Source: Actinomycetota bacterium (lineage in GTDB: Bacteria > Actinomycetota > Actinomycetes > S36-B12). From it: a DNA stretch of 47,209 nucleotides. Below the pieces are notes generated by a model. That model was not told where the DNA came from. It made no database searches and saw only the letters and a program-made list of their open reading frames with translations. How positions within the stretch are numbered: position 1 is the first letter of the stretch; the number at the start of each line of letters is the position of its first letter. Positions 1 through 41,871 of the stretch are shown piece by piece. The stretch lies in NCBI GenBank assembly GCA_030652695.1, contig JAUSQD010000098.1, positions 1-47,209 on the forward strand, read 5' to 3'. The position numbers were made by a program, and so were the translations under genes.

Positions 1-1091
1 CCCGGCTCGGGCTGGGCGAGCTCGGCGGCGCCGTGGGGGTAGACCGTGCCGCAGGAGTGCACGTTGGGGTCGATCAGCGGCGCCAGCCGGCTGGGGGCCG
101 AGAGCACGGGGTCGAGGTCGAGGCGGACCTCGGACAGCCAAGCGAGGTCGGGGCGGAAGCCGGTCACGACCACCACCTCGTCGACGTCGGCCACGCTCGC
201 CCCGTCGACGGCGATGATCCGCAGCGCGCCCGGGTGGTCGGGGTCGTGGGTGACCTCGGCCGTGCGGAAGCGGGTCACCGGCGTGACGGGACCGGCGGCG
301 ACGGCGGCCTGCGCCGCCTTGCCGAGCGCGCCGCGCGCCTCGAGCTGGTCGTTGTCGCCGCCGCCGAACGCGTCGGCCGTCTCGCCACGGCGTACGAGCC
401 AGGACACGCGGGTGCCCGGCACCCGCTCGGCGAGCTGGGTCAGGCCGACGAGGACGTTCTGTGCGGAGGCGCCGGTGCCGGCGACCGCGACGTGCCGGCC
501 GCCGAAGCGGGCGGCGGTCTCGGCCGCGGCGAAGTCGGGGATCCCGTAGGTGATCTGGTCGGCGTGCTCCGCCTCGCCGTACGCCGGCAGCCCGTCGGCC
601 CCCAGCGGGCTGGGGTCGCCCCAGGTGCCGGAGGCGTCGATGACCGCGGACGCGAGCAGCCGCTGGGTCCCGGTCGGGGTGGCGACGCGCAGCTCGAACG
701 GCGTCTCGGCGCGTCCGGCGTCGACCATCCGGTCGCGTCCCTGGCGGGTGAGCGCGGTGACGCGGTGCCCGAAGCGCACCTCCACCTCGGCGGTGGCGGC
801 GAGGGCGTCGGCGAGCGGCACGAGGTAGTCGCGGGCCCAGTCCTCACCGGTGGGGTACGACGCCGGGGCGGGTGGGGCCCAGCCGCGGCCGGCGAGCAGG
901 GCGGCCGCGACGGGGTCGACGAGCTCGCCCCAGGCCGAGAAGAGCCGGACGTGGCCCCACTGGCGCACGGCCGCGCCGGCGGTGTCGCCGGTCTCGAGCA
1001 CGACGGTCGGGAGCCCGCGGGACTGGGCGTGAGCAGCGGCGGCGAGCCCGATCGGGCCGGCGCCGACGATGACGAGGGGGTGCGTGGTCAT
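1..1091 (-). CDS. FAD/NAD(P)-binding oxidoreductase, ArsO-like flavoprotein of actinobacterial ars clusters (3' end runs off the window)
   Basis: My own minus-strand translation from the ATG at complement 1089-1091 gives MTTHPLVIVGAGPIGLAAAAHAQSRGLPTVVLETGD... (GxGxxG dinucleotide-binding fold). The frame stays open to position 1, so it is absent from the ORF track because no stop lies in the window. The + strand ORF 33..1121 is its antisense shadow. It is divergent from an arsR-family gene across a 67-bp palindrome-bearing spacer. Confidence 0.7.
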   Translation of the reverse strand, partial: MTTHPLVIVGAGPIGLAAAAHAQSRGLPTVVLETGDTAGAAVRQWGHVRLFSAWGELVDPVAAALLAGRGWAPPAPASYPTGEDWARDYLVPLADALAATAEVEVRFGHRVTALTRQGRDRMVDAGRAETPFELRVATPTGTQRLLASAVIDASGTWGDPSPLGADGLPAYGEAEHADQITYGIPDFAAAETAARFGGRHVAVAGTGASAQNVLVGLTQLAERVPGTRVSWLVRRGETADAFGGGDNDQLEARGALGKAAQAAVAAGPVTPVTRFRTAEVTHDPDHPGALRIIAVDGASVADVDEVVVVTGFRPDLAWLSEVRLDLDPVLSAPSRLAPLIDPNVHSCGTVYPHGAAELAQPEP

Positions 1092-1103
1092 GCCGGGAAC
1101 TCT

Positions 1104-1145
1104 ATCGATCCGGATCGATGAAAGCAACCATCGATCCGGATCGAT
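1104..1145. promoter_or_regulatory. Two copies of the perfect 16-bp palindrome ATCGATCCGGATCGAT, a candidate ArsR operator pair in a divergent promoter region
   Basis: Copies at 1104-1119 and 1130-1145, 26 bp start to start. They lie between the divergent start codons at 1091 (-) and 1159 (+). Confidence 0.6.
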
Positions 1146-1158
1146 GTATGGTCGGCGT

Positions 1159-2010
1159 ATGACGCAGACCCCGGTCAGTCCCGCCCTGCTCCCCGCCCTG
1201 CCCGCTGACGCGGCCACGACGTACGCCGAGTGGTTCGCCACGCTGTCCGACCCGACGCGGGTGCGGCTGCTGCACGCCGTGTCGTCGTCGCGCGCAGGCG
1301 CGCTGCGGGTGGGCGACCTGGCCGCCGCGCTGGGGATCAGCCAGTCGACCACCTCCCACCATGTCCGCCGGCTGGCCGAGGTCGGGTTCGTGAGCGTCGA
1401 CAAGGTCGGCACCTCCTCGGTGGTCACGGTCAACCCCACCTGCTGCACCGGCCTGCCGCACGCCGCCGACGTCGTCATGGGCACGCTCGCGGAGCTGCCC
1501 TGCTGCCCGGAGGACCTGCCCGCCGACGTCACCACCCGGGCGATGGCCGACGCCGACCTCGAGGCGGTGCGCGACATCTACGTCGAGGGCATCGCGACCC
1601 GCAACGCGACGTTCGAGACCGAGGCGCCGCCGGCCGACGAGCTTGACGGCAAATGGCTGCCGGAGCACCGCTGGGTGGCCGAGATCGACGGCGCCGTGGT
1701 CGGCTGGGCCACGGTCGCCCCGGTCTCCGCGCGGGCCTGCTACGCCGGGGTGGGGGAGACGTCGGTCTACGTGACCGAGGCGGCGCGCGGTCGCGGCGTG
1801 GGCAAGTCGCTGGTACACCGGCAGGTCACCGAGGCCGACCGCGGCGGGCTCTGGACCCTGCAGACCTCGATCTTCCCCGAGAACCGCGCCTCCATCGCGC
1901 TGCACCACTCCGCCGGCTTCCAGACCCTGGCCGTCCGCTCGCGGATCGCCCAGCTGGACGGCGTCTGGCGCGACACCGTGCTGCTCGAGCGGCGCCGCTG
2001 CGACGACTGA
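1159..2010 (+). CDS. ArsR-family winged-helix regulator fused to a PAT/ArsN1-like GNAT N-acetyltransferase
   Basis: The N-terminal half has the ArsR/SmtB signature (LSDPTRVRLLHAV...LGISQSTTSHHVRRLAEVGFV). The C-terminal half resembles phosphinothricin/arsinothricin acetyltransferases (VRDIYVEGIATRNATFETE...YVTEAARGRGVGKSL...IFPENRASIALHHSAGF). ATG 1159 (MTQTPVS) is preferred over the ORF-track start 1069, which would overlap the divergent gene and the palindromes. Confidence 0.8.
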   Translation: MTQTPVSPALLPALPADAATTYAEWFATLSDPTRVRLLHAVSSSRAGALRVGDLAAALGISQSTTSHHVRRLAEVGFVSVDKVGTSSVVTVNPTCCTGLPHAADVVMGTLAELPCCPEDLPADVTTRAMADADLEAVRDIYVEGIATRNATFETEAPPADELDGKWLPEHRWVAEIDGAVVGWATVAPVSARACYAGVGETSVYVTEAARGRGVGKSLVHRQVTEADRGGLWTLQTSIFPENRASIALHHSAGFQTLAVRSRIAQLDGVWRDTVLLERRRCDD

Positions 2011-2026
2011 CCCCCGGGGGTGTCCA

Positions 2027-2066
2027 GACACATCGATGTCTGTCAATATTGATGTATGTCGATATC
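2027..2066. promoter_or_regulatory. Operator-like palindromes and direct repeats at the start of the second arsR
   Basis: Palindromic core ACATCGATGT at 2030-2039 and palindrome TCAATATTGA at 2043-2052. Direct repeat GATGTCTGTC (2035-2044) / GATGTATGTC (2051-2060). These are preceded by CCCCCGGGGG at 2011-2020. Confidence 0.4.
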
Positions 2067-2400
2067 CGCCCCGCTGGACTGCTGTACCCCGCTGGCACGC
2101 GAGCCGATGTCGGCCGAGGGTGCCGACCGGGTCGTCCCGATGCTCAAGGCGCTTGCCGACCCGGTGCGCCTGCGCCTGATGTCGATGGTGCTCTCGCGCG
2201 TCGGCGCCGAGGCGTGCGCCTGCGAGCTGCTGCCGGCCTTCGACCTCTCCCAGCCCACCATCAGCCACCACCTCAAGGTGCTTCACGCGGCCGGCCTGCT
2301 CGACCGCGACAAGCGCGGCGTCTGGGTCTACTACCGCGCCCGCCCCGAGGCGATCGCCGCGCTCGGCACCCTCTTCGACTCCGAGCTGGCCCCGGCATGA
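2056..2400 (+). CDS. arsR: ArsR/SmtB-family arsenic-responsive transcriptional repressor
   Basis: 114 aa with LADPVRLRLMSMV...CACELL...LSQPTISHHLKVLHAAGLL and an N-terminal vicinal Cys pair (PLDCCTP). The stop overlaps the acr3 start (ATGA). Confidence 0.9.
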   Translation: MSISAPLDCCTPLAREPMSAEGADRVVPMLKALADPVRLRLMSMVLSRVGAEACACELLPAFDLSQPTISHHLKVLHAAGLLDRDKRGVWVYYRARPEAIAALGTLFDSELAPA

Positions 2401-3482
2401 GTACGACGGCGCCCCACGACGCCGGCGAGACCGCCGTACTCCAACGGCTCTCGACGCTCGACCGCTTCCTGCCGGTCTGGATCGGCCTCGCCATGGTCGT
2501 CGGCCTGGTGCTCGGCCGCAGCGTCGACGGCCTCGACGACGCGCTGTCGACCGTCGAGATCGGCTCGGTCAGCCTGCCGATCGCGATCGGCCTGCTGGTG
2601 ATGATGTATCCCGTCCTCGCCAAGGTGAGGTACGACGAGCTGGGCCACGTCACCGCCGACAAGCGGCTGCTGGGGGCCTCGATCCTGCTCAACTGGGTGC
2701 TCGGGCCGGCGCTGATGTTCGCGCTGGCGTGGCTGCTGCTGCCGGGCCTGCCGGAGTACCGCACCGGGCTGATCATCGTCGGGCTCGCCCGCTGCATCGC
2801 CATGGTGCTGATCTGGAACGACCTCGCGTGCGGCGACCGCGAGGCCGCCGCGATCCTGGTGGCGATCAACTCGGTCTTCCAGATCGTCGCGTTCGCCGCG
2901 CTCGGGTGGTTCTACCTCGAGCTGCTGCCCGGCTGGCTGGGCCTCGACACGTCGTCGCTGGACGTGTCGGTGTGGGAGATCGCCAAGTCGGTGCTGATCT
3001 TCCTGGGCATCCCGCTGCTCGCCGGCTACCTCACCCGCAGGCTGGGGGAGAAGGCGAAGGGCCGCGAGTGGTACGAGTCGCAGCTGATCCCGCGGATCGG
3101 TCCGGCCGCCCTCTACGGGCTGCTGTTCACGATCGTGATCCTGTTCGCGCTGCAGGGTGACACGATCACCAGCCGGCCCGGTGACGTGGCCCGGATCGCG
3201 CTGCCGCTGCTCGCCTACTTCGCGATCATGTGGGGGCTCTCGATGCTCCTCGGCCACCGGCTGCGGATGTCCTACGAGCGCACGACCACGCTCGCCTTCA
3301 CCGCCGCCGGCAACAACTTCGAGCTCGCCATCGCGGTCGCGATCGGCGTCTTCGGGGTCACCAGCGGCCAGGCCCTGGCCGGCGTGGTCGGCCCGCTGAT
3401 CGAGGTCCCCGTCCTGGTGGGCCTCGTCTACGTCGCGCTGTGGGCGCGGCGCCGCTTCGACTGGAACAGGAGCACGACATGA
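2397..3482 (+). CDS. acr3: ACR3-family arsenite efflux permease
   Basis: Multi-TM protein starting MSTTAPHD. It has the ACR3 hallmarks GLARCIAMVLIWN (conserved Cys) and AAGNNFELAIAVAI (conserved Glu). The 609-aa ORF-track call 1653..3482 is an upstream read-through; the real start is the ATG at 2397, in the same frame. Confidence 0.9.
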   Translation: MSTTAPHDAGETAVLQRLSTLDRFLPVWIGLAMVVGLVLGRSVDGLDDALSTVEIGSVSLPIAIGLLVMMYPVLAKVRYDELGHVTADKRLLGASILLNWVLGPALMFALAWLLLPGLPEYRTGLIIVGLARCIAMVLIWNDLACGDREAAAILVAINSVFQIVAFAALGWFYLELLPGWLGLDTSSLDVSVWEIAKSVLIFLGIPLLAGYLTRRLGEKAKGREWYESQLIPRIGPAALYGLLFTIVILFALQGDTITSRPGDVARIALPLLAYFAIMWGLSMLLGHRLRMSYERTTTLAFTAAGNNFELAIAVAIGVFGVTSGQALAGVVGPLIEVPVLVGLVYVALWARRRFDWNRSTT

Positions 3483-3901
3483 CCGTCCCCCCGACCGTCC
3501 CCCCGACCGTCCCCGAGGTGCTGTTCGTGTGCGTGCACAACGCCGGGCGCTCGCAGATGGCCGCCGCCCTGCTGGAGCACCATGCCGCCGGCCGGGTCGT
3601 CGTGCGCTCCGCCGGCTCGGCTCCCGCCGACTCGGTCAACCCGGCCGTGGTCGAGGTGATGAACGAGCTCGGCATCGACGTCTCCCGCAAGATCCCCACC
3701 AAGCTGCTCACCGAGGACGTCGAGGCGTCCGACGTGGTGGTCACGATGGGCTGCGGAGACGCCTGCCCGATCTTTCCGGGCAAGCGCTACGAGGACTGGG
3801 TGCTCAGCGACCCCGCAGGCCAGGGCATTGCTTCCGTGCGTCCGATCCGCGATGAGATCAGGGCACGAATCGAAGAGCTGATCTCCGAGATTGCCCCGTG
3901 A
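3479..3901 (+). CDS. arsC: Arsenate reductase, low-molecular-weight phosphatase (LMW-PTP) type
   Basis: MTVPPTVPPTVPEVLFVCVHNAGRSQMAAAL: a CX5R(S) P-loop, followed by VVTMGCGDACP. The start overlaps the acr3 stop (ATGA). The composition switches from very high to moderate GC within the last ~80-130 nt. Confidence 0.88.
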   Translation: MTVPPTVPPTVPEVLFVCVHNAGRSQMAAALLEHHAAGRVVVRSAGSAPADSVNPAVVEVMNELGIDVSRKIPTKLLTEDVEASDVVVTMGCGDACPIFPGKRYEDWVLSDPAGQGIASVRPIRDEIRARIEELISEIAP

Positions 3902-3925
3902 ACCTCAATCGTGATCGCATCATCG

Positions 3926-4411
3926 CTAGCAGCACGTAGCTCCAGCTGGCTCACTGGAGTCAAGTGAAGCGCAGCAGGCATTGCCGCCAACTTGATTGAT
4001 GATCATCGGTTCGAACACAGCATCGTTTGTCAGGTCATCGGTAATCGTGTAGATCTCCCAGGGCGCGCCGGCTGGATCGTGCGCCCAGGTCTTGTCCTGC
4101 TCTGCGTAGCAGCACACAGTGCGATTGATGTCCGAGAGCTCCACCCCTTCACTGGCAAGTCGCTGAGCCGTGGCAGCGACGGCCTCAGAATCCTCAACTT
4201 CGATCCCGAGGTGGTTCAGGGCACCTGCAGTGCCAATGCCCCGCTCCTCACTTGATGCCTGAATCAACACCAGTTTCAAGGGAGGTTCAACGATTGCAAA
4301 GTTTGCGTATCCAGGGCGCCGCTTGTGCGGAGTGGTGTTGAACAGGCGCGAGTAGAACTCAACAGAGGCTTCAAGGTCTGACACATTCAGCGCCAGCTGC
4401 ACTCGGGACAT
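3926..4411 (-). CDS. arsI: ArsI/CadI-family VOC metalloenzyme (candidate C-As lyase)
   Basis: Glyoxalase/dioxygenase-fold N-terminus MSRVQLALNVSDLEASVEFY, HLGIEV, and the vicinal Cys pair in TVCCYAEQDKTWAHDP typical of ArsI. The C-terminal tail is Cys-rich. The start is taken at M13 of the track ORF. Confidence 0.75.
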   Translation of the reverse strand: MSRVQLALNVSDLEASVEFYSRLFNTTPHKRRPGYANFAIVEPPLKLVLIQASSEERGIGTAGALNHLGIEVEDSEAVAATAQRLASEGVELSDINRTVCCYAEQDKTWAHDPAGAPWEIYTITDDLTNDAVFEPMIINQVGGNACCASLDSSEPAGATCC

Positions 4412-4435
4412 GGGTCTCTTCCAATCCATAGATGA

Positions 4436-4496
4436 ATATCGATACACCGATTCTCGAACATATATCGATAGATGTCAATAAAGATAGATATCGATA
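4436..4496. promoter_or_regulatory. Three ATATCGATA boxes (palindromic core TATCGATA), a candidate ArsR operator array in the arsI/arsR divergent region
   Basis: Exact copies at 4436-4444, 4462-4470 and 4488-4496, with a constant 26-bp period. The segment is AT-rich and lies between the arsI start (4411) and the arsR start. Confidence 0.6.
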
Positions 4497-4540
4497 TATG
4501 GGGTTACGTATGCGACCATGTCCTCATGGCAATCCCCAAG

Positions 4541-4873
4541 ATGATCGACATCGCGCCGAGCTCAACGAGCTGCTGCGATCCCGGGCTCTCGGCCCCGATG
4601 AGTCGAGCCGATGCTGACGGACTTGCCCAGCTGCTCAAGGCAGTCAGTGATCCCACTCGCCTGCAACTGCTGTCGATCATTCGCTCAAGGCCGGACAATC
4701 AGGCTTGCGTGTGTGATCTGACCGGTCCAGTTGGGCTTTCGCAGCCGACCGTCAGCCACCATTTGAAGGTGCTGACCGACGCCGGCATTCTCCAGCGAGA
4801 GCAGCGCGGCACTTGGGCTTGGTTCTCCATCAATGACTCAAGGCTGCAGCAGATTGCGCAGGCGCTCGCTTAA
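4541..4873 (+). CDS. arsR: ArsR/SmtB-family arsenic-responsive repressor (third copy, moderate-GC module)
   Basis: MIDIAPSSTSCCDPG...VSDPTRLQLLSII...ACVCDL...LSQPTVSHHLKVLTDAGIL. Start 4541 was chosen by N-terminal alignment to the 2056..2400 ArsR. In-frame alternatives are 4526 and 4472; the 4472 ORF would overlap the box at 4488-4496. Confidence 0.85.
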   Translation: MIDIAPSSTSCCDPGLSAPMSRADADGLAQLLKAVSDPTRLQLLSIIRSRPDNQACVCDLTGPVGLSQPTVSHHLKVLTDAGILQREQRGTWAWFSINDSRLQQIAQALA

Positions 4874-12804: not shown

Positions 12805-12851
12805 TCCAGCAGCCCCTGCTGAGCTGCAAGTCACCGCCCGTACACTTCACC

Positions 12852-12946
12852 CACCAAGGGGAGCTCGCAGATTCGGCGGGCTGAGAGGGTGGACGTCTCC
12901 ACCGACCCAATGAACCTGATCTGGGTAATGCCAGCGCAAGGGAGAA
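12852..12946 (+). promoter_or_regulatory. TPP (THI-box) riboswitch
   Basis: AAGGGGAGCUCGCAGAUUCGGCGGGCUGAGAGGGUGGACGUCUCCACCGACCCAAUGAACCUGAUCUGGGUAAUGCCAGCGCAAGGGAGAAGG matches the conserved GGGG..GCUGAGA..ACCC..GAACCUGAUCUGGNUAAUGCCAGCG.AGGGA core. Its 3' end contains the SD of the downstream thiamine-binding protein gene. Confidence 0.88.
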
Positions 12947-12953
12947 GGTGGAT

Positions 12954-14006
12954 ATGTCTATTCATGCATCAAAATTGTTCATTGGCCTCGTCATCTGCAG
13001 TACGGCTCTGCTGAGTGCCTGCGGTGATTCGGAGTCGGCAGGGCCGACGACTGTCCGCCTCCTCACTCACGACTCCTTCGTGGTCAGTCAGCCGCTGATC
13101 GACCAGTTCAAGAAGGACACTGGCATCAGCATCGAGCTCATTACTGGCGGCGACTCTGGCGCAATGGTTGCTGGCGCAGTGCTTGCGTCCGGCTCGCCCA
13201 CCGCCGATGTCCTGTTTGGCATTGACAACACCCTGCTGTCAAAGGCAATCGAGGCTGACATCTTCAGCCCATACACCGCGACAGAAGCAGACTCGATCCT
13301 GCCCACTCTTGGTGATGACACCTCAGGCGGAGTGGTCACCCCCATCGACTACGGCGACGTGTGCATCAATATCGACGACGCCTGGTTCACCGAGCAGCGA
13401 GTGGCCAAGCCGACAAACATCGATCAGTTGACCAGCGCGACCTACAAGGACCTCCTCGTAGTCCAGGATCCAGCGAGCTCCTCGCCGGGACTTGCATTCA
13501 TGCTCGCCACCATCGCGAAGTACGGGGATGGCTGGACGAAGTACTGGGAGCAACTGCGAGACAACGGTGTCGCTGTTTCTGGAAGCTGGACGGACGCCTA
13601 CGAAAGTGTGTTCAGTGGCGGTGCGGGAGATCGGCCCTTGGTGGTGTCATACGCCACCAGCCCACCCGCTGAAATCGTGTATGCCGAGGAACCAAAGCCC
13701 AAGAAGCCGTCAACATCGGTGCTCACTGAAGCCTGCTACCGCCAGATTGAGTTCGCGGGGATCTTGCGAGGCAGCCCAAATGAAGAAGCCGCTCAGCAGG
13801 TGATCGATTGGCTGCTCTCAGCACCGGTGCAAGCCGACGTACCACTGTCGATGTTCGTGTTTCCTGCACGGCAAGGCGTAACACTGCCCGAGGTTTTCAC
13901 CAAGTTTGCTGCACAGGTGCCTGCGCCACTTCAGCTGCCAGCAGGTGACGTCAATGCTCATTTGGCTGAGTGGCTCAAGACATGGGGCCAGGTGATGGGG
14001 CGCTGA
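12954..14006 (+). CDS. thiB: Thiamine ABC transporter substrate-binding lipoprotein
   Basis: Lipobox LLSACG and a thiamine/Fe3+-type SBP fold (VVSYATSPPAE, IEFAGIL). It sits directly behind the TPP riboswitch. ATG 12954 is well spaced from the GGAGAAGG SD; the ORF track starts at GTG 12948. Confidence 0.85.
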   Translation: MSIHASKLFIGLVICSTALLSACGDSESAGPTTVRLLTHDSFVVSQPLIDQFKKDTGISIELITGGDSGAMVAGAVLASGSPTADVLFGIDNTLLSKAIEADIFSPYTATEADSILPTLGDDTSGGVVTPIDYGDVCINIDDAWFTEQRVAKPTNIDQLTSATYKDLLVVQDPASSSPGLAFMLATIAKYGDGWTKYWEQLRDNGVAVSGSWTDAYESVFSGGAGDRPLVVSYATSPPAEIVYAEEPKPKKPSTSVLTEACYRQIEFAGILRGSPNEEAAQQVIDWLLSAPVQADVPLSMFVFPARQGVTLPEVFTKFAAQVPAPLQLPAGDVNAHLAEWLKTWGQVMGR

Positions 14007-37131: not shown

Positions 37132-37962
37132 TCAGGCTGAGGGAACTGTGCAGATGAGCTCACCATGCGAGATGGTGAACCAGCCGTCCGGATCAGCGGC
37201 CCAATCACGCCATGCGGCTGCGAGTCTGTCCAGATCCGCCTGGATGGCGAATCCAGCCGCCAGCGCCTGGCGTGCAAACTCCGATTGCGTCACCCGGACT
37301 GCCCAGGTCTGGCCCCATTCAGTGCGATCCTCAGCAGTGGCGTAACACCACACTGAGGCAGAGGGTGTGATGTCGTGCAGACCCGCTGCGTGGGCCCAGG
37401 CTAAAAGATGCCGGCCGCCATCTGGTTCAGCCGCGTTGGCGCGGGCCACTCGCTGGTAGAGATCCATCCACTCGCTGAGCCCGACAGAAGCGGGATACCA
37501 GGACATCGCCGAATAGTCAGCATCTCGGACCGCCACGATGCCACCTGGCCTGCACACTCGACTCATCTCGCGCAGTGCTGCAGAGGGATCACTCAAGTGC
37601 TGCAGCACTTGATGCGCGTGCACCACGTCAAAGGAGGAGTCAGCAAACTCAAGTGCATAGACATCACCCACGACAAAGGATGCCTTCGACTCGGCTGCGG
37701 CAGCAGCCTCGCGCGCAGCAGCGACTGCGGTCTGACTTTGCTCAAGCCCAATCACTTTGCCCGGTGCAACCAACTCCGCGAAGTCCAGGGTGATCGAGCC
37801 TGGCCCGCAGCCAACATCCAGCACCCGGTCGCCAGCGTGCAGATGCGGCACGAGGTACCCCGCCGAATTCTGAGCCGTTCTCGCTGAATGCGACCGAAGC
37901 ACGCTGGAGTGATGGCCGTGGGTGTAGATGTCAGCGGGTCGCGAAGAACCCGAGGTGCTCAT
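37132..37962 (-). CDS. Class I SAM-dependent methyltransferase
   Basis: Motif I VLDVGCGPGSITL and post-I/II FDVVHAHQVLQHL. The start overlaps the glsA stop (ATGA). Confidence 0.8.
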   Translation of the reverse strand: MSTSGSSRPADIYTHGHHSSVLRSHSARTAQNSAGYLVPHLHAGDRVLDVGCGPGSITLDFAELVAPGKVIGLEQSQTAVAAAREAAAAAESKASFVVGDVYALEFADSSFDVVHAHQVLQHLSDPSAALREMSRVCRPGGIVAVRDADYSAMSWYPASVGLSEWMDLYQRVARANAAEPDGGRHLLAWAHAAGLHDITPSASVWCYATAEDRTEWGQTWAVRVTQSEFARQALAAGFAIQADLDRLAAAWRDWAADPDGWFTISHGELICTVPSA

Positions 37963-39227
37963 GCCAGTCCTCCCTGGCCAACGCCCACCTTGACCAGCAT
38001 TGACGGATCCTCAATGGACACGCGAAAGCCACTTTCCTTGAGTCGGGTCACCAACTGCTCAAGCATCATGTTGGCCGCTTCGCCGATGGAGGTCACGTGA
38101 GTGAGGTCGAAGCGGACCTCGGCGTCTGACTTCTTCTTCGTGGCCAGTTCCTCGGCCACCTCGTGCACGATGAGCTCAAGATCCACGAAGTCCAGGTCTC
38201 CACGTATCCCAGCTGAGAGCACGTCGGCATCCCACTTCAAAAGGTGAATCGGACTCGCAGGTCGCGGCGGATGCTGCAGGAGATTGAGCCCGTACCCCTC
38301 GGAGAGCAAGGTCAACACCGCCACTCCCCGACTGCTGTTGCCGGCATCGTCCAAGCGCGGGCTGAAGACGCCAATGCCGAACTGGCCAGGCTTGACTGCC
38401 GAGATTCCGCCGCTCACACCACTCTTGGCAGGCATCCCCACGCGGACAGCCCATTGCCCTGCGTAGTCATACATGCCGCAACTGCCCATGACCGCCAAGG
38501 TGTGTCTGGCCACTGCGGAATCGACTATTTGCACACCTGTCATGGGATTGATGCCGTCATTGGCCAGGGTTGCCGACATCACGGCGATGTCGTACGTCGT
38601 CACCAACAGGGAGCATTGGCGGAAGTAGACCTCAGTCACGTCCAGTACCTCGCGAGTCAGACTGCCGGAAGCCTTCATCAAATAGGCCAGCGCGCGATTG
38701 CGATCGCCCGATTCCCTCTCTGATTCAAAGACCTTCTGATCAACGTCGAGCACTCTGCCGGCGAAACCTGAAAGTGATGCGTGGATCCGCGCAAATCTCT
38801 CCGATGAGCTCTGTCCTGAGATCAGCGAGGAAGTCAGCAGTGCACCCGCGTTCACCATGGGGTTTGCGGGACGACCCTGATCATCGAGACTGAAGGCGTT
38901 GAACGGCTCGCCGCTTGGCTCAAAGCCCACGCGCTCATGCACCGCGTCCAGCCCTAGATCACTGATGGCCAAGGCATAGACAAAGGGCTTGGAAATCGAC
39001 TGCAAGGTGAACTCCTTGCGCGAATCCCCTGCTTCATAGGCGTGACCAAGCACACTGACCACTGCGATACCGAACGCATCCGGGTCAGCTTTGGCCAGTT
39101 CGGGGATGTAGTCGGCGATCCTGCCGGTCGTGACTGGGGCGGAGAGGCGAAGCAGCGCGTCGAGTATCCGATTGACCGGCTCTATCCGCTCCGTCTGCTC
39201 CATCACCGGCTCCCTGCTTATGCTCAC
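37959..39227 (-). CDS. glsA: Glutaminase A with a C-terminal STAS-like domain
   Basis: IADYIPELA, LQSISKPFVY (Ser-x-x-Lys), NPMVNAGAL, PAKSGVSGGI. An extra ~110-aa C-terminus (GDLDFVDLELIVHEV...FDLTHVTSIGEAANMMLEQL) looks like a STAS/anti-sigma-antagonist fold. Confidence 0.85.
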   Translation of the reverse strand: MSISREPVMEQTERIEPVNRILDALLRLSAPVTTGRIADYIPELAKADPDAFGIAVVSVLGHAYEAGDSRKEFTLQSISKPFVYALAISDLGLDAVHERVGFEPSGEPFNAFSLDDQGRPANPMVNAGALLTSSLISGQSSSERFARIHASLSGFAGRVLDVDQKVFESERESGDRNRALAYLMKASGSLTREVLDVTEVYFRQCSLLVTTYDIAVMSATLANDGINPMTGVQIVDSAVARHTLAVMGSCGMYDYAGQWAVRVGMPAKSGVSGGISAVKPGQFGIGVFSPRLDDAGNSSRGVAVLTLLSEGYGLNLLQHPPRPASPIHLLKWDADVLSAGIRGDLDFVDLELIVHEVAEELATKKKSDAEVRFDLTHVTSIGEAANMMLEQLVTRLKESGFRVSIEDPSMLVKVGVGQGGLA

Positions 39228-39261
39228 TGGTGCACTCCACCGTCCACGACAGGAGAACGAT

Positions 39262-40008
39262 ATGACCTATTGCATTGCGGTCCGCCTTGATCATGGCTTG
39301 GTCTTCATCTCGGACACTCGCACGAACGCCGGAGTGGACAACGTCGGTACCTACCGCAAGCTTCATGTCTTTTCACCTGCACCCGATCGAATGTTCGTGC
39401 TGCAGTCGGCTGGCAATCTGGCCACGACTCAGGAGGTCCTGGACCGCATCCGCCGCGATCTGGCCGATCCCGATGCGCGGCTGAACTTGGCGACCGTGGA
39501 GCACTTGTTCGAAGCCGCGCTCTACGTCGGTGCCCTGTCGCAAGAGGTGATGAAACTCCATGCACCGTCCTTTGAGAATCCGCGACAGGCCAGCGCCACG
39601 TTCATCGTGGGCGGCCAAGTGGGCGACGAAGCCTCCGACATCTTGCTTGTGTACCCAGAAGGCAACTACATCCGAGCATCAGATGAGCGGCCATTCCTGC
39701 AGATCGGTGAAAGCAAGTACGGCAAGTACATGCTTGAAATCGGCATCCACAGTGGCGTGGACTTCGCAACGGGACTCAAAGTCGTCCTGAGCTCGATGAT
39801 GAGTGCGTCACGAGCCAATGTCTCGGTTGGACCGCCCTACGACATCGGCATCTACGAATTCGGCAGCCACGAACTCCAGGAGTTTCGGGTGCCACCGGGA
39901 TCTCCGGCTCTGGCCAGACTCGAACGATTCTGGGGCGACCGTCTGCGGGATCTGATGGACGAACTGCCGCCGATCTCCCCGGACGATTTCGGATCAGAGC
40001 GCGACTGA
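39262..40008 (+). CDS. Anbu-type proteasome beta-subunit homologue (COG3484 proteasome-type protease)
   Basis: MTYCIAVRLDHGLVFISDTRTNAGVDNVGTYRKLHVF: Thr2 follows the initiator Met (Ntn nucleophile position) and the SDTRTNAG motif is as recalled for Anbu. SD AGGAGA lies 6 nt upstream. The 44-codon extension of the track ORF overlaps glsA. Confidence 0.75.
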   Translation: MTYCIAVRLDHGLVFISDTRTNAGVDNVGTYRKLHVFSPAPDRMFVLQSAGNLATTQEVLDRIRRDLADPDARLNLATVEHLFEAALYVGALSQEVMKLHAPSFENPRQASATFIVGGQVGDEASDILLVYPEGNYIRASDERPFLQIGESKYGKYMLEIGIHSGVDFATGLKVVLSSMMSASRANVSVGPPYDIGIYEFGSHELQEFRVPPGSPALARLERFWGDRLRDLMDELPPISPDDFGSERD

Positions 40009-40040
40009 GTTTTGCGCTGGTTCGTGGATATGGTTTCGGC

Positions 40041-41192
40041 ATGACCACACGGGTTGTTGTGCTTGGTGCCGGATTTGGCGGACTCGAACTGACCACATTG
40101 GTATCTGAGGCATGCGGCGATGACGTCAGCGTCGTGTTGATCGATCAAAGTTCGCACTTCGTCTTTGGCTTTTCGAAGTTGGATGTCATGTTTGGCAAGG
40201 CGTCAGCAGACCACGTGCGCCATCCGTACTCAGCAATCGTCAAGGATGGCGTGCAGTTCGTCTCTGCGACCATCACGGCCATCGATCCGACCAGTCGTCA
40301 TGTGGAGACGACAGCGGGATCATTTGATGCCGACATCCTGGTCGTGGCTCTCGGTGCTGAATTCGATATCAGTGCAACACCCGGTCTGTCGGACATTGGT
40401 CATGAGTTCTACACGGTTGACGGAGCCTTCGCGCTACAAGAGGTTCTTGCCAATTTCAACGGCGGACGAGTGGTCATCGGCGTGACGTCTACACCCTTCA
40501 AGTGTCCACCCGCGCCGAGTGAGACAGCCTTGCTGATGGACGAGTTTCTCAAGGAGCGAGGGCTGCGTGAATTCTCTGAGATCACTTTGGTGATGCCCTT
40601 TGGCCTGCCGATTCCACCATCACCTGAGGCGTCCCAGGCCATTCTTGAAGCCTTCGCCGAGCGAGGCATCAACTGGCTTCCAGAGCGAGTCGTCAAGGCG
40701 CTGAACGTGCAGACGCAGATGGTCGAACTCAGCAATGATCAGGAGTTGCCTTTCGACCTCTTCCTCGGAGTGCCGGTGCATCGAGTTCCATCAGTCGTTG
40801 CTGAGTCAGGCATGACCGTCGACGGTTGGATCCCAGTCGATCCCCTCACACTGGAGACGGCATACCCGGATGTCTATGCCGTTGGTGATGTCACGAGCGT
40901 GGGTACGCCCAAGGCAGGGGTCTTCTCTGAAGGGCAGGGCGTGGTGGTGGCCGAGCGAATCATCGCTTCAGTGCAGGGGCGTGCAGTCACAAGCGAGTAT
41001 GGAGGCCGAGGCATCTGCTACCTCGAGTTCGGCTCGCATGAGGTGGCCAAGGTCGACGTCGTCTTTCGCACGGGCGAGCGACCAGTCGGCGATCTTGTTG
41101 GCCCGACACCTGAACTGATGAACGACAAAGTGCAGTTCGGGTCTGAGCGAATTCAACGCTGGTTCGGTCGACAGTGGAGGCCGACCGTCTAG
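40041..41192 (+). CDS. FAD-dependent pyridine nucleotide-disulfide oxidoreductase, sulfide:quinone oxidoreductase-like
   Basis: VVVLGAGFGGLE (FAD fold), FKCPPAPSE, and YAVGDV. It lies 32 nt downstream of the Anbu gene on the same strand. Confidence 0.75.
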   Translation: MTTRVVVLGAGFGGLELTTLVSEACGDDVSVVLIDQSSHFVFGFSKLDVMFGKASADHVRHPYSAIVKDGVQFVSATITAIDPTSRHVETTAGSFDADILVVALGAEFDISATPGLSDIGHEFYTVDGAFALQEVLANFNGGRVVIGVTSTPFKCPPAPSETALLMDEFLKERGLREFSEITLVMPFGLPIPPSPEASQAILEAFAERGINWLPERVVKALNVQTQMVELSNDQELPFDLFLGVPVHRVPSVVAESGMTVDGWIPVDPLTLETAYPDVYAVGDVTSVGTPKAGVFSEGQGVVVAERIIASVQGRAVTSEYGGRGICYLEFGSHEVAKVDVVFRTGERPVGDLVGPTPELMNDKVQFGSERIQRWFGRQWRPTV

Positions 41193-41208
41193 TGAATGGT
41201 CATCCACA

Positions 41209-41871
41209 TCACAGCCTTCGTTCCAACCGCGCTCGAACTTCTGGCCAGTCCTCGGCAACGATTGAAAATAGAACCGAATCGCGAACTGACCCGTCCTGAC
41301 GACGCTGGTAGCGCCGGAGGACTCCTTCAAATTGAGCACCTAGACGAGCGATTGCCTGTTGCGATCGCATATTGCGGATATCTGTCATCAACTGCACACG
41401 TCCCATGTGCATCGACTCAAAGGCATGCGTCAGGAGCAAGAGCTTGCACTCAGGGTTGACCGTGCTCGCCCATACCTGCGGGCTGTACAGAGTCCCGCCG
41501 ATTTCGGTGCGAGCCGCCTCCACCACAGTTTCCAAGTACGAGCTCGTGCCGATGATGGATCCCGCTGACATCCCTCCCACTTCTCGAACCAAACGAACCG
41601 TCCACACATGCCAGTTGGGGTTCGATGCGCGAGCGCTCAGCAATTGAGACAGTTCTGCCGCAGAGCTCGGGCGCCCGGCAACATGAGTCCACACCTGATC
41701 GTGGTCAAGCGCTGCAAACATCTCCTCTGTGTCCATCGGGTCAAACGCGCGAAGCGCGACCGTCGCTCCGACTAATTCCAACCCCGCTTCAATGGGCCAA
41801 GCTCCCATTGGCCAGGGGCTGTCGGCGGGACGAGGATCAACTCTGGGCTGAAAGCGCGGGACTTCGTTCAC
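41209..41871 (-). CDS. GNAT-family N-acetyltransferase (RimJ/RimL-like)
   Basis: Acetyltransf_3-like pattern: LRAFDPMDTEEMFAAL...ECKLLLLTHAFESMHMGRVQLMTDIRNMRSQQAIARLGAQFEGVLR. Confidence 0.7.
   Translation of the reverse strand: MNEVPRFQPRVDPRPADSPWPMGAWPIEAGLELVGATVALRAFDPMDTEEMFAALDHDQVWTHVAGRPSSAAELSQLLSARASNPNWHVWTVRLVREVGGMSAGSIIGTSSYLETVVEAARTEIGGTLYSPQVWASTVNPECKLLLLTHAFESMHMGRVQLMTDIRNMRSQQAIARLGAQFEGVLRRYQRRQDGSVRDSVLFSIVAEDWPEVRARLERRL

Follow-up and report, generated by a model that had tools for sequence, protein, structure and literature searches.

Anbu proteins are proteasome-like N-terminal nucleophile (Ntn) hydrolases. Their genes are described as lying "often" or "frequently" (Valas & Bourne 2008, PMC3235984; Fuchs et al. 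2017, PMC5666114), or "predominantly" (Piasecki et al., PMC6376114), in a four-gene operon together with genes for an ATP-grasp protein (COG2308), an Alpha-E protein (COG2307) and a transglutaminase-like protein (COG1305). Actinobacterial Anbu sequences have been placed in the Anbu-1 cluster (PMC3235984; PMC5666114). The only physiological clue to Anbu so far is induction upon nitrogen limitation: as cited in PMC3235984 and PMC6376114, Hervas 2008 found the Anbu operon among the most upregulated genes of nitrogen-limited P. putida. A published hypothesis holds that Anbu supplies substrates to the transglutaminase, which would release ammonia (PMC3235984; PMC6376114). Here we examine an Anbu gene found in a 47,209-nucleotide stretch of a 72-kb contig of an Actinomycetota bacterium (positions 1 to 47,209 of JAUSQD010000098.1, hereafter "the window"). 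The gene stands apart from the canonical operon partners and adjoins glsA, a gene for glutaminase A. Both traits recur in a large branch of related Anbu genes, and we propose, with a probability of roughly 0.5, that Anbu proteins of this branch act together with glutaminase to salvage nitrogen or turn over glutamine. A literature search found no paper that links Anbu with glutaminase A or describes an actinobacterial branch without partners.

Identity of the Anbu protein

The gene occupies positions 39262 to 40008 of the forward strand and encodes a threonine Ntn hydrolase of 248 amino acids. The enclosing open reading frame (ORF) extends from 39130 to 40008 on the same strand, and the Anbu start codon is the internal ATG at 39262. 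This start is preceded, at a distance of 6 nt, by an AGGAG ribosome-binding site (39251–39255, forward strand) that was recognized by reading the sequence and is kept in two relatives (L003 and L008; loci are designated by such numbers throughout). The translation agrees with the initial annotation, which had reported a 248-amino-acid protein starting with MTYCIAV and carrying an SDTRTNAG motif (ISDTRTNAG in its context).

When the protein was compared with the PDB using phmmer, five distinct Anbu sequences (5loy, 5nyw, 5nyj, 5nyf and 5lox) were matched with E values between 2e-55 and 2e-46, in alignments that span the full length (residues 1–238). The next-best match was a 20S beta6 subunit with an E value of 0.04, and no HslV or BPH chain was detected at E ≤ 1. 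With the Pfam 'Proteasome' model the score was 17 bits, short of the threshold, and the protein is not covered by any NCBIfam model; these two circumstances explain why the names given in databases are vague ('putative proteasome-type protease' and '20S proteasome subunit A/B' are examples).

Structural comparison led to the same assignment. A model predicted with AlphaFold2 from 45 aligned relatives (pLDDT 88.7) presents the Ntn alpha-beta-beta-alpha sandwich and Anbu-type C-terminal helices at residues 215–233 and 240–243. In a Foldseek search against the PDB, ranks 1 to 31 were all occupied by Anbu chains, with TM scores of 0.74–0.88 (0.83–0.88 for full-length chains) and a root-mean-square deviation of about 2 Å; the 20S beta subunits ranked after them, with TM scores around 0.6. 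By all the sequence and structure criteria tested, the 248-amino-acid protein is Anbu, and the earlier distinction from HslV, BPH and PrcB is upheld by both phmmer and Foldseek.

The active-site segments of the protein (MTYCIAV...SDTRTNAG...YRKLH) can be read without interruption. The predicted nucleophile Thr1 (T2) directly follows the initiator methionine, with no propeptide, and Thr1, Asp17 (D18) and Lys33 (K33) are invariant among the 45 relatives and also in both context groups, canonical and orphan. At the level of sequence, the active site is intact. By analogy with the solved Anbu structures, the protein may assemble into an open-ring dodecamer or a helical lock-washer.

Comparison with described systems delimits the position of this protein. 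It shares full-length homology, at 35–46% identity, with canonical Anbu-1 proteins from P. aeruginosa (5LOX), Y. bercovieri (5NYW) and Hyphomicrobium (5NYJ/5NYF), and has in common with them the fold, the position of Thr1 after methionine without a propeptide, the C-terminal helices, Asp17, Lys33 and some 45 other invariant positions. However, the branch to which it belongs forms a separate clade with fixed residues of its own (L60, D61, R62, L87, R138, A185, Y193 and S214). HslV and BPH share with the window Anbu the Ntn-hydrolase fold and the Thr1 nucleophile, but neither of them appeared among the 50 best structural matches, and a Pfam scan of the window found no gene for an HslU-type AAA+ unfoldase; HslV and BPH were therefore rejected as identities. 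Homology to the actinobacterial PrcB/Pup system is only distant, as seen in the Pfam score and in the TM scores to eukaryotic beta subunits. In contrast with that system, the window Anbu lacks a propeptide, and the window contains neither a proteasome alpha-subunit gene nor pup, mpa, dop or pafA; the protein is much nearer to Anbu.

Local absence of canonical partners and recurrence of glutaminase A

A homology search retrieved thousands of homologues, the best 120 of which were all at least 60% identical to the window protein. The genomic context of relatives was collected by look-ups of exact proteins with precomputed Pfam annotation, by a genome scan (4 loci) and by a metagenome scan (80 loci) that used the alignment of 45 relatives as query. 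Altogether 97 loci were gathered, including 72 non-redundant loci with an Anbu at least 55% identical to that of the window and 22 loci in the 39–46% range. Pfam-verified seeds were then run over all loci by phmmer, rebuilt hidden Markov models and tblastn: seeds for the ATP-grasp, Alpha-E and transglutaminase proteins came from L005 and L007, while the window, L004 and L012 supplied those for glutaminase.

No substantial ORF of the window matched the Pfam models CP_ATPgrasp, Alpha-E or Transglut_core, in agreement with the initial annotation. Partners located just outside the window could not belong to the Anbu transcription unit, since Anbu is preceded by a divergent gene and those past the downstream neighbour lie on the other strand. 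The absence extends well beyond this window. None of the 72 loci with at least 55% identity carried any of the three genes in its sequenced flanks, including 17 loci with 5 kb or more on each side, and the precomputed Pfam annotation of the loci of 12 relatives lacked them as well. With the same models, the order ATP-grasp, Alpha-E, transglutaminase, Anbu was found in 16 of the 22 loci at 39–46% identity. The remaining six have a short upstream side, L071 excepted; where the upstream flank was adequate, partners were detected within 2 kb at every locus of this group but L071.

Anbu proteins with at least 55% identity form a single clade in a neighbour-joining tree. Taxon labels within it include Actinomycetota, Candidatus Nanopelagicales, Acidimicrobiales and Microthrixaceae, and its members come from uncultured Actinomycetota, represented by metagenome-assembled genomes (MAGs) of Acidimicrobiia and Nanopelagicales type that derive from soil and freshwater metagenomes. 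Carriers of this branch include OY969793.1, a complete Acidimicrobiales chromosome (L004), the Nanopelagicales assembly GCA_046330695.1 (L002) and the MAG that encodes MDP2287672.1. Relatives at 74% and 62% identity belong to Nanopelagicales and Acidimicrobiales MAGs, respectively. The actinobacterial background suggested at the outset is supported: the 90% cluster to which a syntenic relative (85% identity) belongs has a member labelled 'Actinomycetota bacterium'. The stand-alone condition first noticed in the window is therefore a trait of a whole large Anbu branch rather than of one genome.

One explanation of this pattern is that Anbu continues to act with the ATP-grasp, Alpha-E and transglutaminase proteins, encoded elsewhere as a regulon instead of an operon, and that the glutaminase is secondary. 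Valas & Bourne (PMC3235984) reported that, when Anbu lies outside the operon, the three genes nonetheless belong almost always to the same predicted regulon, and found no Anbu genome without the transglutaminase; furthermore, the orphan and canonical groups have in common most of the conserved residues of the surface and the active site. Even so, we consider this explanation rather unlikely. A complete separation across an entire branch, without a single partner in the flanks of 72 loci and next to a group in which the partners are regularly found within 2 kb, does not resemble the occasional operon splits of earlier reports.

In two loci from Myxococcales or delta-proteobacterial MAGs (L005 and L006), the neighbours of Anbu include a DUF2126 amidoligase and a fusion of GATase_4 with transglutaminase. 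These loci also carry the Alpha-E and ATP-grasp genes, and they provide a further case of a glutamine-amide enzyme near Anbu.

The gene upstream of Anbu in the window (37959–39227, reverse strand) encodes a 422-amino-acid glutaminase A whose C-terminus carries a STAS-like domain. The Pfam Glutaminase model (PF04960) is matched with an E value of 1.9e-112 and 375.6 bits over profile positions 1–284 of 286, TIGR03814 scores 346.9 bits against a cut-off of 255.4, and NF002134 aligns to residues 17–412; the STAS_2 and STAS models fall marginally under their cut-offs. The two genes are divergent and only 34 nt separate their start codons (39228–39261), so that both promoters must extend into the neighbouring coding region; a spacer this short also has no space for a GlnR or AmtR box. 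A scan of positions 38900–41400 did not find a sigma-70-like consensus near Anbu, and no Rfam element was detected near the locus.

The initial annotation had correctly listed this gene as a divergent glutaminase-STAS neighbour, yet its importance was missed: glsA is a recurrent neighbour of Anbu. Of the 72 orphan-clade loci, 21 have glsA immediately beside Anbu (22 if the partial locus L074 is counted). Among loci with a flank of 1 kb or more on both sides, 12 of 34 showed adjacency; the corresponding figures were 11 of 28 for 1.5 kb or more and 7 of 17 for 5 kb or more. The 569 kb of flanking sequence contains 21 glsA genes, and each of them adjoins Anbu, an outcome with a probability of about 1e-12 under random placement within the flanks. 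Both long (STAS-bearing) and short forms of glutaminase are found in this position.

The relative orientation of the two genes varies, and the arrangements are distributed over several neighbour-joining subclades. Nine are divergent (the window, L003, L008, L012, L021, L023, L038, L056 and L064), two are convergent, tail to tail (L004 and L051), and ten are co-directional in the order Anbu, glsA. Outside the clade, the sister-group locus L072 (46% identity) has the reverse order, glsA followed by Anbu. The TGA of Anbu overlaps the GTG or ATG of glsA (GTGA or ATGA) in L028, L034, L036, L041, L065, L067 and the partial locus L074; such a stop/start overlap is a signature of translational coupling, which points to seven predicted Anbu-glsA operons.

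An alternative is that Anbu of this branch serves on its own as a housekeeping or stress protease, without any dedicated partner, and that adjacency to glsA is inherited synteny undergoing neutral decay. The high variability of contexts, which include glucose-6-phosphate dehydrogenase (G6PD), GGDEF-EAL proteins, P450, acyl-CoA dehydrogenases and a ClpP fragment, can be accommodated by such a scenario, as can the majority of loci that lack glsA. We nevertheless regard it as unlikely: glsA adjacency lasts down to about 55% Anbu identity while the surrounding genes change, holds across three orientations and is accompanied by translational coupling in seven loci. Persistence through divergence, orientations and coupling is a pattern typical of selection for linkage.

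A possible trace of glsA was also observed at L017, where positions 2782–2850, which begin 15 nt past the Anbu stop codon, encode 23 amino acids that match the central part of GlsA. At L016, the nearly identical sister of L017, no glutaminase lies within 10 kb. The match may be the remnant of a glsA gene lost recently.

A possible role in glutamine turnover

The proposed cooperation of Anbu with glutaminase admits a simple sequence of events. Under nitrogen shortage, Anbu would cleave peptides, proteins or an amide-linked glutamine or glutamyl compound; the glutamine released would then be deamidated by GlsA to yield glutamate and ammonium. In the window, the 34-nt divergent control region is common to glsA-STAS and Anbu, and the two genes may be co-regulated. 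In the classical operons, the role that we assign to GlsA may correspond to that of the transglutaminase-like protein, which is also directed to glutamine. The nitrogen-induced operon of P. putida, as far as it is described in the papers that cite it, offers a parallel of the same kind: a link between Anbu and the chemistry of nitrogen or glutamine amides, with a transglutaminase there and a glutaminase here. The difference is that the P. putida operon, according to the same citing papers, consists of four genes and includes a transglutaminase-like protein and an ATP-grasp ligase, while the orphan branch, never found beside the canonical partners, is often found beside a free-glutamine amidohydrolase of the beta-lactamase-like family.

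A more specific version of this proposal is that, in Actinomycetota, Anbu and GlsA constitute a two-gene nitrogen-salvage module that replaces the canonical partners, with Anbu as a threonine peptidase or amidase that releases glutamine, or is specific for glutamine or glutamyl groups, and feeds GlsA. We put it forward tentatively, as a possibility to which we would give less than even chances. The same linkage also fits alternatives such as regulatory proteolysis of GlsA or participation of Anbu in another GlsA-linked process.

Several observations weigh against the association of Anbu with glutaminase. Although frequent, the link is not obligatory: around 60% of the informative loci of the orphan clade lack an adjacent glsA (examples are L001, L002, L011, L014, L016, L027 and L093–L097). 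The loci are phylogenetically related, and the number of independent adjacency events is well under 21. Inherited synteny could explain some of the adjacency, as five of the loci (L004, L012, L028, L034 and L064) also have in common a nearby Ig-like protein. Adjacency is not equivalent to co-expression, and the canonical partners may be present elsewhere in the genomes of the orphan branch. Canonical Anbu showed no peptidase activity and formed no stable complexes in the hands of Piasecki et al. (PMC6376114). Finally, a search for Anbu-GlsA fusions that covered the 150 best representatives out of 1.84 billion proteins found no true one. A single candidate, P0284, was rejected as a frameshifted call across adjacent genes.

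The flavoprotein gene, other neighbours and meaning for the family

Downstream of Anbu, on the same strand and 32 nt after its stop codon, lies a gene (40041–41192) for a 383-amino-acid FAD protein. Its matches to Pyr_redox_2 (8.7e-20) and FCSD_central (6e-07), and its best structural relatives, flavocytochrome c sulfide dehydrogenase (FCSD; 1fcd, 1.4e-24) and human sulfide:quinone oxidoreductase (SQOR; about 1e-21), identify it as a genuine member of the SQR/FCSD family with the FAD Rossmann fold. The score of the type III SQR model (NCBIfam NF049943) was 213 bits, below the curated cut-off of 525. Both redox cysteines of the family align: FKCPPAP with Cys161 of FCSD and Cys201 of human SQOR, and GICYLEFG with human Cys379.

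The initial annotation paired Anbu with this gene and suggested that the new context may reveal a different partner set; the neighbourhood survey does not sustain a partnership with the SQR-like gene. Among the 97 loci, the SQR-like gene accompanies Anbu in only four (L003 and L008–L010) besides the window, all with an Anbu at least 85% identical, so the linkage is essentially confined to one lineage. In L003, a SulP/STAS transporter gene (2688–4364) intervenes between the two genes. The same four loci share with the window the entire block from glsA to the ABC exporters, a block that is simply syntenic in close relatives, and in relatives at 72–76% identity the SQR-like gene is already absent and Anbu has other neighbours (G6PD, a methyltransferase and GGDEF-EAL proteins). 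A functional pair, in which for instance Anbu would clear proteins damaged by sulfide or persulfide or would be activated by the flavoprotein, could invoke the short gap on a common strand, the lack of a predicted terminator between the genes (scan of 38900–41400), the conservation of the pair in L008–L010 and the presence of both redox cysteines; given its narrow distribution, we find such a pair very improbable. Co-transcription of the two genes may occur in the window lineage, and the comparison of loci marks the SQR-like gene as a passenger, recent and specific to this lineage, and not as a conserved partner. The orphan state of Anbu noted in the early description is confirmed and now extends to 72 loci.

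SulP-family transporters with a STAS domain adjoin Anbu in two loci (L003, 2688–4364, and L022, 1–408). A STAS-like domain is also found at the C-terminus of the window glutaminase.

Clustering of the ORFs that flank Anbu yielded only weak recurrences: GGDEF-EAL proteins, an Ig-like C-terminal domain and G6PD. Shadow ORFs of these high-GC sequences dominated the all-against-all comparison, and two clusters, of 19 and 10 loci, were discarded because they overlap Anbu or GlsA on other frames and have no Pfam match. Glucose-6-phosphate dehydrogenase, located 0.1–2 kb from Anbu in L001, L002 and L011 (relatives at 72–76% identity) and in L020, is a second recurrent neighbour, restricted by lineage. 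Proteins with GGDEF, EAL or PAS domains occur within about 6 kb of Anbu at nine loci (L001, L002, L004, L011, L028, L034, L041, L047 and L067), a recurrence that may be due to chance because the family is abundant. A conserved domain of about 230 amino acids without Pfam match, placed at the C-terminus of large secreted proteins of Ig-like/fn3 type, recurs in L028 (9205–9924), L034 (5862–6557), L004, L012, L016 and L064; in L028 and L034, it is found directly 5' of the Anbu-glsA pair. In L095 and L096, a short ClpP-family ORF (3203–3685; 110–160 amino acids, possibly a fragment) lies directly upstream of Anbu. The Anbu of these loci (P0105) is a widespread form of the orphan clade, present in more than 140 contigs.

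The remaining contents of the window are varied. Besides GlsA-STAS, Anbu and the SQR-like protein, its genes encode arsenic resistance functions, a phosphate-type ABC importer, an ABC importer controlled by a thiamine pyrophosphate (TPP) riboswitch, DsbA, fatty-acid oxidation enzymes, an aldehyde dehydrogenase, a propeller protein similar to Vgb lyase, alanine dehydrogenase, glutathione peroxidase, a methyltransferase, a GNAT protein, an alpha/beta hydrolase and two ABC exporters. The first 3,700 nt (1–3700) have a GC content of 0.70–0.78, compared with about 0.59 in the rest. They harbor a truncated FAD oxidoreductase gene with a weak ArsO-like match (3–1577, reverse strand) and an ACR3 arsenite efflux ORF of 609 codons (1653–3482) whose start is probably internal, as the ACR3 model covers residues 266–595 only. 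ArsI/CadI (3926–4447) and ArsR (4472–4873) adjoin this stretch at native GC. The high-GC segment looks like an arsenic island of foreign composition or an assembly chimera.

The TPP riboswitch (Rfam RF00059, 61.7 bits; 12847–12962, forward strand) is located directly 5' of genes for a solute-binding protein (12948–14006), a permease and an ATPase, presumably a thiamine uptake operon. ARAGORN proposed an 81-nt tRNA-Thr(AGT) at 41161–41241 (forward strand), where it would run across the ends of two ORFs, the 3' end of the SQR-like one and that of the GNAT one. This call is probably a false positive, as Rfam reports no tRNA there.

The distribution of Anbu in the orphan branch indicates that the ATP-grasp, Alpha-E and transglutaminase genes are not required in cis for its retention. 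Linkage to glsA, combined with an active site that is intact in sequence, narrows the hypotheses on Anbu function to glutamine and nitrogen turnover, and Anbu and GlsA offer a minimal two-gene system for biochemistry. The proposed link gives the family a concrete and testable hypothesis of function, and the two-gene module, if true, would provide the first substrate class and physiological role for a protein in which no activity has been found since 2008.

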